Below, piece after piece: positions 1,334-5,002 of a DNA stretch of 5,002 bases. The DNA comes from a virus. Taxonomy: Duplodnaviria; Heunggongvirae; Uroviricota; Caudoviricetes. The stretch lies in IMG/VR virus record IMGVR_UViG_2675903396_000008. One strand, 5' to 3'. The notes beneath the pieces are model-generated. The model was not told the DNA's origin and did no database searches. It worked only from the letters and a program-made list of their open reading frames with translations. Numbering within the stretch: the stretch's first letter is position 1; each line of letters begins with the position of its first letter. The position numbers and the translations under genes are program-made.

Positions 1334-1394
1334 TGCTGCGGGTGCTTGAGGCTATCTGCCTCGGGCATGAACACCAACGGCAGATAGAGAAAAG

Positions 1395-1460
1395 CCCCAG
1401 TTAACATTACGCGTCCGGCAAGACGCTTAACATTAATCTGAGGCCATATCTATGCTCTAC
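1395..1460 (-). ncRNA. sok: Candidate Sok-like antisense RNA covering the mok translation initiation region; boundaries approximate
   Basis: Inference from hok/sok architecture. A minus-strand promoter-like pair (-35 TTGCCT at plus 1495-1490, 17-nt spacer, -10 TAACCT at plus 1472-1467) would start transcription near 1460, antisense to the mok SD and start codon. I could not identify a terminator. Confidence 0.25.
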
Positions 1461-1664
1461 ACACGTAGGTTAGCCTCTTACGTGCCGAAAGGCAAGGAGA
1501 AGCAGGCTATGAAGCAGCAAAAGGCGATGTTAATTGCCCTGATCGTCATCTGTTTAACCGTCATAGTGACGGCACTGGTAACGAGGAAAGACCTCTGCGA
1601 GGTACGAATCCGAACCGGCCAGACGGAGGTCGCTGTCTTCACAGCTTACGAACCTGAGGAGTAA
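1452..1664 (+). CDS. mok: Mok-like leader reading frame, 70 codons, in frame with hok and ending at the same stop (N-terminal extension MLYTRRLASYVPKGKEKQA)
   Basis: ATG at 1452 is in frame with hok. The extension resembles my recollection of MokC (ML.T.R...K.KEK.AMKQ.K). In hok loci, mok translation is coupled to and required for hok translation. Confidence 0.5.
   Translation: MLYTRRLASYVPKGKEKQAMKQQKAMLIALIVICLTVIVTALVTRKDLCEVRIRTGQTEVAVFTAYEPEE
1509..1664 (+). CDS. hokD: Hok/Gef-family type I toxin, 51 aa (MKQQKAMLIALIVICLTVIVTALVTRKDLCEVRIRTGQTEVAVFTAYEPEE)
   Basis: ATG at 1509 with AAGGAGAAG just upstream; stop TAA at 1662-1664. The sequence matches my memory of E. coli HokD (RelF): single transmembrane helix, conserved C..R and TAYEP motifs. 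Family assignment is high confidence; the exact paralog is from memory. Confidence 0.85.
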   Translation: MKQQKAMLIALIVICLTVIVTALVTRKDLCEVRIRTGQTEVAVFTAYEPEE

Positions 1665-1732
1665 GAGACCAGGCGGGGGAGAAATCCCTCGCCACCTCTC
1701 ATGTGTCAGGCATCCTTAACGCACCCGCACTA

Positions 1733-1754
1733 AACCCGCTTCGGCGGGTTTTTT
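1733..1754 (+). terminator. Rho-independent terminator ending the hok transcript (stem AACCCGC / GCGGGTT, loop TTCG, T6 tail)
   Basis: Hairpin and T-run read directly from the sequence, about 70 nt after the hok stop. Confidence 0.65.
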
Positions 1755-2823: not shown

Positions 2824-3113
2824 TGGTGGATTTACGTAAAGCGGCGCGGGGGCAGATGTGCACCGTCAGAATTCCTGGCTACTGCAATCACGATCCGGAA
2901 ACGTCTGTGCTGGCGCATTACCGACTGGCGGGAACGTGCGGAACAGCGATAAAGCCACACGATATGCAGGCAGCGATTGCCTGTAACTCATGCCACGATT
3001 TAATCGACGGGAGAGTAAAAACCAGCGATTACACCAAAGAAGAATTGCGCCTGATGCATGCAGAAGGTGTTTTTCGCACACAAGAGATCTGGAGAAAGGA
3101 CGGTTATTTATGA
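2823..3113 (+). CDS. DUF1364 / YbcO-like Cys/His-rich phage protein, 96 aa, putative nuclease
   Basis: ATG at 2823 overlaps the upstream stop; stop TGA at 3111-3113. Conserved-looking motifs RKAARG, C..RIPG.CN, ETSVLAH, IAC..CHD; length and motifs fit my recollection of DLP12 YbcO. Confidence 0.7.
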   Translation: MVDLRKAARGQMCTVRIPGYCNHDPETSVLAHYRLAGTCGTAIKPHDMQAAIACNSCHDLIDGRVKTSDYTKEELRLMHAEGVFRTQEIWRKDGYL

Positions 3114-3664
3114 TTTACCCAACGAACACAGGAAAAAGCGGAGAGCACCTTCGTCTCACCACGCTGGAAAGTGTCTGGATTCAGGGGAAACTACGTATGT
3201 GGGGGCGCTGGTCGTATATTGGCGGCGGTAAGACGGGAAATATGTTCAACCAGTTGCTGACCTCTAAAAAGCTGACAAAAACGGCAATTAACGAGGCGCT
3301 CCGGAGGATGAAAAAAGCAGGTCTGGACAAACCTAAACTTGAGGCTTTTTTGCGGGATATGATCAACGGCAAGCAAAAAAGCTGGCTGGTGCATTGTACC
3401 GATTCAGAGGCGTTAATAATCGACAGGGTTATTGGTGAAGTACTGGCAGGTTATCCCGGGCTGCTCAATGTTCTGAGTCAGCGTTATGTGGGGCGGGGGA
3501 TGACTAAGCGCAAAATGGCTGAACTGCTGAATGATGCACATCCGGAATGGAGTTTAAGAACCTGTGAAAGACGCATTGAGCATTGGCTAAAGGTGGCAGA
3601 ATTTATTTTGTACAAACCAATGGTTATGGCTTTTGGTATAGAGAAAAAAGTTATTGCTTTTTGA
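3110..3664 (+). CDS. Late-gene antitermination protein Q-like, 184 aa
   Basis: ATG at 3110 overlaps the upstream stop (ATGA); stop at 3662-3664. It sits directly upstream of a terminator and a tRNA cluster, the canonical Q position. The WG.W motif region resembles QuuD-type Q proteins as I remember them. The ORF-track start at 2990 overlaps the upstream gene and is rejected. Confidence 0.6.
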   Translation: MIYPTNTGKSGEHLRLTTLESVWIQGKLRMWGRWSYIGGGKTGNMFNQLLTSKKLTKTAINEALRRMKKAGLDKPKLEAFLRDMINGKQKSWLVHCTDSEALIIDRVIGEVLAGYPGLLNVLSQRYVGRGMTKRKMAELLNDAHPEWSLRTCERRIEHWLKVAEFILYKPMVMAFGIEKKVIAF

Positions 3665-3740
3665 CGTAAAAACTGCTTTAATTCCGGTAAGCTTAGCAAA
3701 GCTGTATCGCGAGGCGAACCAAACGCATGAACTTTACCAG
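3655..3740 (+). promoter_or_regulatory. Candidate late promoter PR' / qut region immediately after Q
   Basis: TTGACG at 3661-3666 overlaps the Q stop, as the -35 of lambda PR' does. I could not find a -10 hexamer at 16-18-nt spacing (the best, TAAGCT at 3688-3693, is 21 nt away), so this rests on position only. Confidence 0.3.
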
Positions 3741-3764
3741 AACCCGCCATTGAGCGGGTTTTTT
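3741..3764 (+). terminator. Rho-independent terminator, tR'-like (stem AACCCGC / GCGGGTT, loop CATTGA, T6 tail)
   Basis: Hairpin and T-run read directly, about 80 nt after the Q stop. Confidence 0.6.
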
Positions 3765-3803
3765 ATTGCGGAATTAATTACGGACCGTTATTATTCTGCT
3801 CCC

Positions 3804-3879
3804 GGCCCTTTAGCTCAGTGGTGAGAGCGAGCGACTCATAATCGCCAGGTCGCTGGTTCAAATCCAGCAAGGGCCACCA
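3804..3879 (+). tRNA. ileZ: tRNA-Ile2 (anticodon CAU, lysidine type), 76 nt with encoded CCA
   Basis: Cloverleaf folded by hand: 7-bp acceptor stem GGCCCTT/AAGGGCC, anticodon loop CTCATAA, T-loop TTCAAAT. Near-identical to my recollection of E. coli ileX, which makes it Ile2 rather than Met. Confidence 0.85.
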
Positions 3880-3888
3880 TATCACATA

Positions 3889-3965
3889 CCGCCATTAGCT
3901 CATCGGGACAGAGCGCCAGCCTTCGAAGCTGGCTGCGCGGGGTTCGAGCCCCCGATGGCGGTCCA
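3889..3965 (+). tRNA. argN: tRNA-Arg (anticodon UCG), 77 nt with encoded CCA
   Basis: Cloverleaf folded by hand: acceptor stem CCGCCAT/ATGGCGG, anticodon stem CCAGC/GCTGG, loop CTTCGAA, T-arm CGGGG-TTCGAGC-CCCCG. The symbol is assigned by its order in the Stx-phage ileZ-argN-argO array and is uncertain. Confidence 0.8.
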
Positions 3966-3978
3966 TTATCGGTATTCT

Positions 3979-4055
3979 GCGTTGTTAGCTCAGCCGGACA
4001 GAGCAATTGCCTTCTAAGCAATCGGTCAGTGGTTCGACTCCACTACAACGCGCCA
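3979..4055 (+). tRNA. argO: tRNA-Arg (anticodon UCU), 77 nt with encoded CCA
   Basis: Cloverleaf folded by hand: acceptor stem GCGTTGT/ACAACGC, anticodon stem ATTGC/GCAAT, loop CTTCTAA, T-loop TTCGACT. Symbol by array order, uncertain. Confidence 0.85.
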
Positions 4056-4068
4056 CACTTATTTTCCA

Positions 4069-4092
4069 GGCTCGCTTCGGCGGGCCTTTTTT
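4069..4092 (+). terminator. Rho-independent terminator after the tRNA cluster (stem GGCTCGC / GCGGGCC with one mismatch, loop TTCG, T6 tail)
   Basis: Hairpin and T-run read directly from the sequence. Confidence 0.55.
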
Positions 4093-4224
4093 GTATCTGC
4101 GCCACGCCCGGCGCATATCAACCACAGAGCCTTTCGGGGGTGAGCTTACGGAGTGGTCAGTGTGACTTTCTCTGTGGGCAGATCGCTCCCGGGCGTTGGC
4201 TCACCCACCCAAAGGAACGTCACG

Positions 4225-4531
4225 ATGTTTGGAATCTTCAAAAAGAAAACCCGCAGAGCGGCAGCGGAAATTAAAAAGTTTGAGAAACGCGATCTGGCAC
4301 AGGCGGTGATTAACGCTGCATACCTGGTGGCCTATGCAGATGGTGAATGCGAGGCATCCGAGAAAGCGAAGATCGAACAGGTCTTACGTAATCAGCCTGC
4401 GTTGTCTGCGTTTACCTCGGAAATTAATGCGATTAGCGCAACTATTATCGGTCAGCTGGATACCAATTTTAAAATTGGTCGTCGTGCCGCGTTACGCGAG
4501 ATTGAGGATGTGAAACACGATACGCGTGAAG
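4225..4531 (+). CDS. TerB-like domain protein, N-terminal 102 aa; the 3' end runs into the N-run
   Basis: ATG at 4225 with AAAGGAA at 4211-4217 (7-nt spacer). The motif AAYLVAYADGECEASEKAKIEQVL looks like the TerB tellurite-resistance fold as I remember it. The ORF-track start at 4153 has no SD. Confidence 0.55.
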
Positions 4532-4588
4532 NNNNNNNNNNNNNNNNNNNNNNNNNNNNNNNNNNNNNNNNNNNNNNNNNNNNNNNNN
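4532..4588. other. Run of 57 N: assembly gap or masked sequence
   Basis: Read directly. Coding frames on the two sides differ, so the N-run length is probably a placeholder. Confidence 0.95.
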
Positions 4589-4789
4589 CGGTGTTCTGGG
4601 TCTTCGTCTGGAGAATCACCTGTGACGGTAAAACTGCGCCTGGCTGTGGCTGCACTCCTGCTGTTTCTGGTGGTGATGGTGGATTTCACCAGCAGAATCA
4701 TGTCGGTGCTGGCGGATGGGGTGCTGGTCTGCGGCATTGTGGTATTGCTGTGGCCGGTGATAAAAAGAAACAGCCTGCATAATGCTTGA
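4589..4789 (+). CDS. C-terminal fragment (67 aa visible) of a membrane protein (...LAVAALLLFLVVMVDFTSRIMSVLADGVLVCGIVVLLWPVIKRNSLHNA); the 5' end lies in the N-run. Probably the same gene as 4225-4531.
   Basis: Frame 2 gives a protein-like hydrophobic sequence ending at TGA 4787-4789. Frame 1, the continuation of the 4225 ORF across the N-run, gives Gly-rich low-complexity sequence and is rejected. Confidence 0.45.
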   Translation, partial: RCSGSSSGESPVTVKLRLAVAALLLFLVVMVDFTSRIMSVLADGVLVCGIVVLLWPVIKRNSLHNA

Positions 4790-4956
4790 TTTTTTTGTTT
4801 GCTGTTTATTAAAAACACTTCTGCATGGTGAATCCCCCTGTGCGGAGGGGCGATCAGCAACCAGGTATATGGGATAATCGCGGATTCAGGTGCTGATACT
4901 GAATTCACCGGGAGGCACCCGGCACCATGCAAGAAAAAGAATGTGCATGCAAACAT

Positions 4957-4980
4957 GCCCCTCTCCGGAGGGGCTTTTTT
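4957..4980 (+). terminator. Strong hairpin with T6 tail (GCCCCTC-TCCG-GAGGGGC-TTTTTT); terminator or attenuator
   Basis: Perfect 7-bp GC-rich stem read directly. The 3' arm GGAGGGG sits 7 nt before the ATG at 4981 and could serve as its SD, suggesting structure-gated translation. Confidence 0.5.
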
Positions 4981-5002
4981 ATGGGTAAAAAATGCCCGAA
5001 TG
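4981..5002 (+). CDS. 5' end of the next gene (MGKKCPN...), truncated by the window; alternative in-frame start at 4927
   Basis: ATG at 4981 follows GGAGGGG at 4968-4974. ATG at 4927 is in frame with GGAGG at 4911-4915, but that reading passes through the hairpin. Too short to identify. Confidence 0.2.

Follow-up and report, generated by a model that had tools for sequence, protein, structure and literature searches.

What is encoded directly downstream of the late antiterminator and tRNA genes of a lambdoid prophage, and whether it is one interrupted gene or two, is the question raised by the viral DNA analyzed here (IMG/VR record IMGVR_UViG_2675903396_000008; a stretch of 5,002 nucleotides (nt), hereafter the window, in which all coordinates are window positions on one strand read 5′ to 3′). 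A TerB-like open reading frame (ORF) starts at 4225, a hydrophobic ORF in another frame ends at 4789, and a 57-nt run of Ns lies between them. All of these features, as listed by the initial annotation, are present; they had been interpreted there as a single membrane-anchored TerB gene, interrupted by the Ns, in the position that Shiga toxin (Stx) phages use for stx. The region comprises two genes, tciA and tciB, and not a single broken gene. Our best overall explanation, in which we place high confidence, is a two-gene tciA–tciB cargo pair in the stx slot with the N-run as a placeholder. The pair was first named in phage P1 and is already catalogued (PHROGs 632 and 1470), and the content of the region is known, ordinary, and a very common phage gene pair.

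The sole N-run of the window covers exactly 57 nt (4532–4588). The part of the window from 4060 to 5002 was searched against 5,426 complete Escherichia coli genomes, 2,894 of which contained a match, at a median of two and a maximum of 15 places per genome; in 743 of the genomes at least 80% of the query was covered at one place. Among the best 25 records listed, identity was 100% over every non-N base, and the matched stretch was 974 nt long in the record compared with 943 nt in the query. Prophage Sp10 of strain Sakai contains 88 nt between the N-run flanks, and exactly this length separates the two flanks in all of the 76 fetched related loci in which both exact 20-nt flanks are present, none of which has 57 nt. 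The 88-nt stretch is identical in 72 of the 76. A scan of viral contigs returned 80 loci, all near-identical E. coli prophages, which fixed the gap length and added no diversity. The real sequence hidden behind the Ns is thus 88 nt long (CGGAAGATGTGCTGGATGTGGCGGTGGCCATTGCGGAGGCAGACGGCGAAATTGAGCCGGAAGAGCGCAAGGTGCTGGAAGAGATTGC) and corresponds to TerB residues 103–132; the difference of 31 nt (88 − 57) moves the frame by one. To the right of the Ns, frame 3 reads GVLGLRLENHL* (4590–4625), which is the C-terminus of the TerB protein, and the TerB frame with the 88 nt restored ends in ...TREAEDVLDVAVAIAEADGEIEPEERKVLEEIAGVLGLRLENHL*. The change of frame across the run, correctly recognized in the initial annotation, arises because 57 Ns replace 88 nt of real sequence, which alone is sufficient to produce it. 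Judged from these loci, the N-run is a placeholder of arbitrary length, one of the options that the initial annotation had entertained, and its length is uninformative.

The Ns appear to be a scaffold gap of estimated size, because 8–11 copies of the region occur in enterohaemorrhagic E. coli (EHEC) genomes and many "partial" TerB and DUF3927 proteins come from draft assemblies. The ends of many such "partial" proteins at NCBI lie in the 3′ half of tciA (window about 4488–4607), where short-read contigs often break, probably owing to the 8–11 near-identical EHEC copies. In a scan of species-representative genomes, no Ns were present in 10 loci of other species. The whole window was not found as one closely matching stretch in any of the complete E. 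coli genomes; the best cover was 94% at 96.7% identity, split by an insertion of about 2 kilobases (kb), and the closest continuous matches in these genomes end at 4058.

The two genes lie on the plus strand and are of ordinary structure. The first, tciA (4225–4625), opens with ATG at 4225 in frame 1 (MFGIFKKK...HDTRE as far as the Ns) and stops with TGA at 4623–4625; it is 432 nt long and encodes a soluble TerB-family protein of 143 amino acids (aa) when intact in relatives, and occupies 401 positions here, interrupted by the Ns. The second, tciB (4622–4789), is in frame 2, with a GTG start at 4622 and a TGA stop at 4787–4789, and encodes a 55-aa small membrane protein of the DUF3927 family. 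The tciB start and the tciA stop overlap by 4 nt (GTGA, 4622–4625), and a ribosome-binding site for tciB, GGAG, can be read from the sequence within the 3′ end of tciA (4610–4613), 8 nt upstream of the GTG; the pair is therefore arranged for coupled translation. RefSeq annotates the same two coding sequences, one of 432 nt ("tellurite resistance TerB family protein") and one of 168 nt ("DUF3927 family protein"), with the same 4-nt overlap. In a comparison with a relative of about 88% DNA identity, 44 of 47 differences in tciA fall at third codon positions and only three residues change, and 16 of 28 differences in the DUF3927 gene are at third positions; as far as these substitution patterns tell, both frames are under purifying selection. 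The single membrane-anchored TerB gene of the initial annotation must accordingly be withdrawn: TciA contains no transmembrane segment (maximum 19-residue Kyte–Doolittle mean of 1.01), and the hydrophobic part belongs to a separate DUF3927 gene with its own GTG and GGAG. The initial annotation had also stated that its interpretation would fail if closure of the gap revealed two unrelated ORFs. Two ORFs are indeed there, but they form a conserved, coupled pair and are not unrelated. The "interrupted membrane-anchored TerB gene" arose as an artefact, because a placeholder N-run lies over two catalogued genes.

Other readings of the same letters have to be weighed against tciA–tciB. If the N-run were a mask that keeps its true length, a 31-nt deletion would frameshift and inactivate tciA. 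Frame 1 is open through the Ns up to 4782, and internal deletions of this gene are known in databases, such as the loss of 27 residues between repeated EIE motifs in P0230. However, 57 nt occurs in none of the 76 loci having both flanks, the flanking bases are all 100% identical to intact copies, and the frequent draft-contig breaks in the 3′ half of tciA together with the 8–11 EHEC copies fit a scaffold gap, so that a deletion is very improbable. Extremely improbable is one gene in which a TerB domain is fused to a C-terminal membrane anchor and the frame is broken only by the Ns. Both domains do occur together in rare database proteins (P0124, 197 aa, five members; P0186, 170 aa; and P0298), but their junctions hold an out-of-frame linker, for example ...LEN-TCDGKTAP-AVAALLL, which points to an origin by insertion or deletion (indel), and the fused clusters have at most five members, whereas those of the separate 143-aa protein have 680 and 848. 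In relatives, moreover, the TerB frame is closed by the TGA within the first 4 nt of the DUF3927 ORF. The DUF3927 profile, searched exhaustively with HMMER over 1.84 billion cluster representatives, gave 139 hits, nearly all of them stand-alone proteins of 20–90 aa; of three longer hits, two represent read-throughs, frameshifted or chimeric, and one is joined to an unrelated ATPase-like sequence, and a native TerB–DUF3927 fusion was found in none of the 139. In a further database protein, P0252, an unrelated phosphatase is joined to DUF3927 through an out-of-frame junction peptide. From their junctions, we regard P0124, P0186, P0298, and P0252 as indel or gene-calling artefacts, the same misreading that the N-run invited. 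Programmed frameshifting at the overlap was ruled out as a way of joining the two frames, since AATCACCTGTGACGG contains no slippery heptamer.

Two longer frames also cross the region. A mechanical ORF list contains a 209-codon frame-1 ORF (4153–4782, plus strand) that spans the Ns; downstream (VFWVFVWRITCDGKTAPGCG...), this ORF reads tciA and tciB out of frame without meeting a stop codon, and that part was rejected as a gene product. On the minus strand, a long antisense ORF (4492–4956) has an open frame of 154–172 codons and was annotated once, as ECs_1960 in the original Sakai annotation. That this is the real gene is next to impossible: it has no match to a Pfam or PHROG family, the current RefSeq annotation of strain E2863 leaves it uncalled at this locus, the third-position substitution bias tracks the plus-strand frames, and it lies antisense to a high-scoring Rfam RNA.

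With the gap filled, TciA matches the Pfam TerB family (PF05099) at 60.2 bits (cut-off 24.4; E-value 2.9e-16; residues 26–138), which upholds the TerB-like domain proposed initially; the N-terminal fragment of the window alone scores 24.6 bits, compared with the gathering threshold of 24.4. The gap-filled protein also matches PHROG 632 (1.7e-69) and, remotely, the solved TerB structure 2JXU_A of Klebsiella pneumoniae (E-value 4.4e-8; residues 14–137 against 20–144). Its conserved acidic residues include D39, E46, D117, and E124. The AlphaFold2 model of TciA is all-helical, with eight helices and a predicted local distance difference test score (pLDDT) of 87.7. Its top match in a Foldseek search of the PDB is 2h5n, which we take to be a member of the TerB-like superfamily, with a probability of 1.00 and a template modelling score (TM) of 0.53–0.61 and an E-value of only 0.018. 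The structure 2ou3 (COG3793, "tellurite resistance protein") ranks 24th in this search; the E-values are weak, and the top matches are small helical proteins. Over its TerB repeats, TciA additionally aligns with the profiles of DjlA (1e-6) and DUF533 (3.4e-5), in both cases below the family cut-offs. In the N-terminal region of DjlA and in proteins of the DUF533/YebE type, the TerB domain is tethered to the membrane within one polypeptide, whereas any membrane element of the tci pair is a separate gene product; TciA lacks the J-domain of DjlA, and what they share is the general notion that a TerB domain operates at the inner membrane.

TciB matches the Pfam family DUF3927 (PF13064) at 62.3 bits (cut-off 25; E-value 4.3e-17) and PHROG 1470 at 4e-30 over positions 1–54 of 54. 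It has two hydrophobic segments, with hydropathy peaks above 2.7 at residues ~14 and ~36–40, a conserved DFTSR motif (D21-F-T-S-R) between them, and basic residues at both ends. The conserved residues are D21, F22, D32, and P45.

The TerB–DUF3927 arrangement is widespread. Phage records carry the names tciA and tciB, which derive from P1 and have been given by homology only; in P1 itself, tciA, tciB, and tciC are part of the C1-repressed ban operon and adjoin tRNA genes. The order TerB then DUF3927 with a 4-nt overlap is present in lambdoid prophages with three different families of the antiterminator Q; the overlap is 1 nt in phage P1 and P1-like elements, and the two genes abut or overlap by 1 nt in virulent N4-like phages of E. 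coli and Klebsiella. The arrangement was also identified in eight of the 10 species-representative Enterobacterales genomes having the DUF3927 motif. TerB without DUF3927 is more widespread and is found in Erwinia jumbo phages and in Vibrio and Pseudomonas phages. In the literature, our search for functional studies of DUF3927, TciA/TciB, or TerB-like prophage proteins yielded annotation-level mentions only.

P1 offers the closest comparison. Its tciAB(C) genes belong to the same families in the same order (PF05099 then PF13064), and like the window pair they are abutting or overlapping ORFs with adjacent tRNA genes and with repression in the lysogen, which is probable for the window pair. TciA of the window is 42% identical by tblastn to the P1 reference record and 51% identical to another P1 record, and TciB is 50% identical in alignment and 58% identical over the tblastn-aligned part. 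There are differences as well: the P1 pair lies in the C1-controlled ban operon while that of the window lies in a probably Q-dependent late operon, the overlap is 1 nt in P1 and 4 nt (GTGA) in the window, and P1 has tciC whereas the window encodes no TciC homologue. P1 TciC does not align with the only ORF 3′ of tciB, and the space is taken up by an STnc100 element. tRNA genes adjoin tci genes in P1, phage JLK-2012, and the present prophage; in P1, trnI lies directly 3′ of tciC, and the first tRNA of the window (3804–3879) is 86% identical to it. A common tRNA–tci synteny with P1 and JLK-2012 was considered, and no claim is made, as only about 75% generic tRNA similarity lies behind it.

The window is the late-regulatory region of a lambdoid prophage, and the position of the pair in it matches that given by the initial annotation, directly after a Q-like gene (3110–3664) and a block of tRNA genes (3804–4055). 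Homology to an Stx2a phage defines the slot. The window from 3764 to 4103, which includes the tRNA genes and a hairpin, is 95.6% identical to this phage, and that from 4805 to 4979 is 69% identical; the two homologous blocks enclose stx2A and stx2B in the Stx2a phage. A cargo-less relative with the same Q–tRNA block has only about 80 nt in the slot. From the homology boundaries with the Stx2a phage and the empty-slot relative, the cassette therefore extends over approximately 4104–4804, and the comparison with stx made initially is well founded. Its leader (4104–4224), the left edge of which was set by blastn against the same two, carries AAGGA at 4212–4216, 8 nt upstream of the ATG at 4225. 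By these alignments, the pair is a mobile cargo cassette in the lambdoid late region, upstream of the esterase and lysis genes, in the slot of stx2AB in Stx2a phages. In those phages stx2AB likewise follows the ileZ–argN–argO tRNA genes and a terminator and precedes the STnc100 element, an esterase gene, and the holin gene. However, the proteins are unrelated to TciA and TciB; the analogy is positional only, with no toxin function here.

How the cassette is expressed can be judged from its borders. A promoter scan of the plus strand from the tRNA terminator to the ATG at 4225 found no sigma-70 promoter, and terminator-like hairpins stand on both sides of the cassette. Because of these two features, we consider it likely that the cassette is read only by Q-modified RNA polymerase, in which case it would be transcribed during lytic growth and not in the lysogen. 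Such lytic, Q-only transcription would fit both the C1 repression of the genes in P1 and their presence in virulent phages.

The stress-response, defence, or lysis-timing function suggested initially is speculative. For the function of the pair we make a tentative proposal, which is possible at best. TciB may reside in the inner membrane, both of its termini facing the cytoplasm, and TciA may act on or with it, TciB either recruiting TciA or being regulated by it, so that the pair would alter the membrane state of the infected cell in favour of the phage. The most plausible outcomes might be exclusion of superinfecting phages or buffering of membrane or ion stress before lysis, and superinfection exclusion or pre-lysis membrane protection is the role that we favour over its rivals. 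TerB has been reported elsewhere as membrane-associated and amphitropic, switching between cytoplasm and membrane. Proteins with a TerB domain also belong to three defence systems, Bunzi, Shango, and Dionysus, which have been proposed to carry out "membrane surveillance", and phage-borne Ter genes have been suggested, in a comparison of jumbo phages, to act on superinfecting phages (PMC7824862). Bunzi, Shango, and Dionysus resemble the tci pair in combining a TerB-domain protein with membrane proteins, but the partner proteins differ, and the tci cassette is phage-encoded and apparently expressed in lytic growth. A more specific, and doubtful, version is that TciA–TciB forms a two-protein membrane device of the phage, in which TciB would oligomerize around D21 and D32 and TciA would respond to a ligand or metal signal by gating TciB or docking onto it, which could lead to superinfection exclusion or neutralize TerB- or membrane-based defences of the host during lytic growth.

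Two other roles compete with this proposal. A lysis-timing module, in which TciB is a holin- or antiholin-like protein tuned by TciA, would suit the location of the pair upstream of a class II holin gene in lambdoid prophages, in some of them directly (0.5 kb), and TciB resembles class II holins in its size and apparent two-segment layout; in the closest relatives of the window, an esterase gene lies between the tci pair and the class II holin gene. DUF3927, however, has no match to a Pfam holin family at E-values up to 1, the pair of P1 and N4-like phages occupies early or replication-linked regions well away from the lysis genes, and it is non-essential in P1, which makes lysis timing improbable. 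Assignment of TciB itself as a holin was ruled out by the Pfam search, and the class II holin of the prophage is a separate downstream gene. Quite improbable, too, is lysogenic conversion, in which TerB made in the lysogen would give the host resistance to tellurite or colicin. The family name and the PHROG label suggest it, and the canonical ter operon is known from the literature to confer tellurite, colicin, and phage resistance. TciA and the TerB of terZABCDE (2JXU) belong to the same Pfam family, match over nearly their full length, and both contain paired acidic "ADG...E" helical motifs, but the match is remote, and where the operon protein has TerC as partner and ter genes as neighbours, TciA has DUF3927. 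No terC, terD, terZ, or other ter gene was found within 6 kb on either side in relatives, where the neighbours are Q, tRNA, DUF3927, SASA-family esterase, and holin genes. The scan that found no promoter ahead of ATG 4225 also speaks against expression in the lysogen, as do the C1 repressor control of the P1 operon and the occurrence of the pair in virulent N4-like phages, which have no lysogeny.

Several observations count against a membrane-acting, phage-serving TciA–TciB pair or against details of it. The AlphaFold2 monomer of TciB is one continuous helix (residues 2–54), and the hairpin topology drawn here is taken from hydropathy and charge distribution alone. DUF3927 proteins of the phage 434-type subfamily (52 aa) follow a 247-aa membrane protein of the TfpB family (PF27470, PHROG 1521) and not a TerB protein, and judging from such loci TciB does not seem strictly to need TciA. 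These 434-type loci (phage 434 and three more) occupy the same interval between the Q and holin genes. In P1, tciA and tciB are non-essential by CRISPR interference (PMC10695390), and the operon is missing from nearly half of one P1-like subgroup (PMC9603915). In PADLOC-DB v2, TciB had no match and TciA had only one of 0.0035 over 35 residues to an unrelated candidate, PDC-S48; assignment of the pair to a known defence system is ruled out by this result. Finally, the 88-nt fill used for TciA comes from relatives rather than having been read in the source genome.

The surroundings of the pair are those of a late-regulatory region. Upstream on the plus strand lie genes for DUF977 and DUF551, a hok/sok module, and genes for DUF1367 and DUF1364, followed by the Q-like gene and the tRNA genes. 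The Q-like ORF encodes a late antiterminator of the DUF1133 family and marks the start of the late transcription unit; its counterpart in Sakai Sp10 is labelled "phage antiterminator", and RefSeq lists the matching gene as "DUF1133 family protein". Some 80 nt past its stop, a GC-rich hairpin with a T-run (3740–3775, plus strand; AACCCGC-CATTGA-GCGGGTT-TTTTATT) was read by eye and is absent from the terminator scan list; its position is that of the short, early-terminated late transcript of lambdoid phages. The three plus-strand tRNA genes, identified by ARAGORN and by annotation in relatives, have the anticodons CAT (3804–3879), TCG (Arg, 3889–3965), and TCT (Arg, 3979–4055); the first is called Met by ARAGORN and tRNA-Ile (ileZ) in RefSeq and phage records. 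Between the tRNA block and the cassette, the terminator-like hairpin at 4068–4092 (plus strand) has an 8-base-pair stem with six GC pairs followed by TTTTTTG, and it is also present in Stx2a phages, where homology reaches 4103. The hok/sok type I toxin–antitoxin module (1340–1664, plus strand) contains a sok RNA (RF01794, 111.7 bits, 1340–1514) and a HokD-like toxin ORF that ends at 1664, annotated as hokD in a close relative. A weak match to the Hfq-binding RNA isrK (1673–1754, plus strand; 31.2 bits, below the gathering score of 50) ends in a hairpin and T-run just 3′ of the hok gene.

Downstream of the pair, the small RNA element of the STnc100 family (4794–4986, plus strand; RF02076, 145.8 bits compared with a gathering score of 47) is a component of the phage backbone and not of the cassette. 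It begins 5 nt past the tciB stop and ends in a terminator at 4957–4981. A homologous element lies 3′ of stx2B in Stx2a phages, and STnc_100 has been located 75 nt downstream of the stx2 operon (PMC12370729); the STnc_100 primers used in that study for the polymerase chain reaction match the window exactly at 4826–4845 and 4897–4916. In relatives, the element is followed by a SASA-family esterase gene and then by holin, endolysin, and spanin genes.

The main value of this analysis is one of correction: the membrane-anchored TerB architecture should not be carried forward as new. If the membrane device outlined above were true, it would provide the first function for a cassette that over half of the complete E. 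coli genomes carry, located where Shiga toxin genes otherwise reside. TerB domains are emerging in anti-phage systems, and the role of a phage-borne tci pair could therefore be informative.

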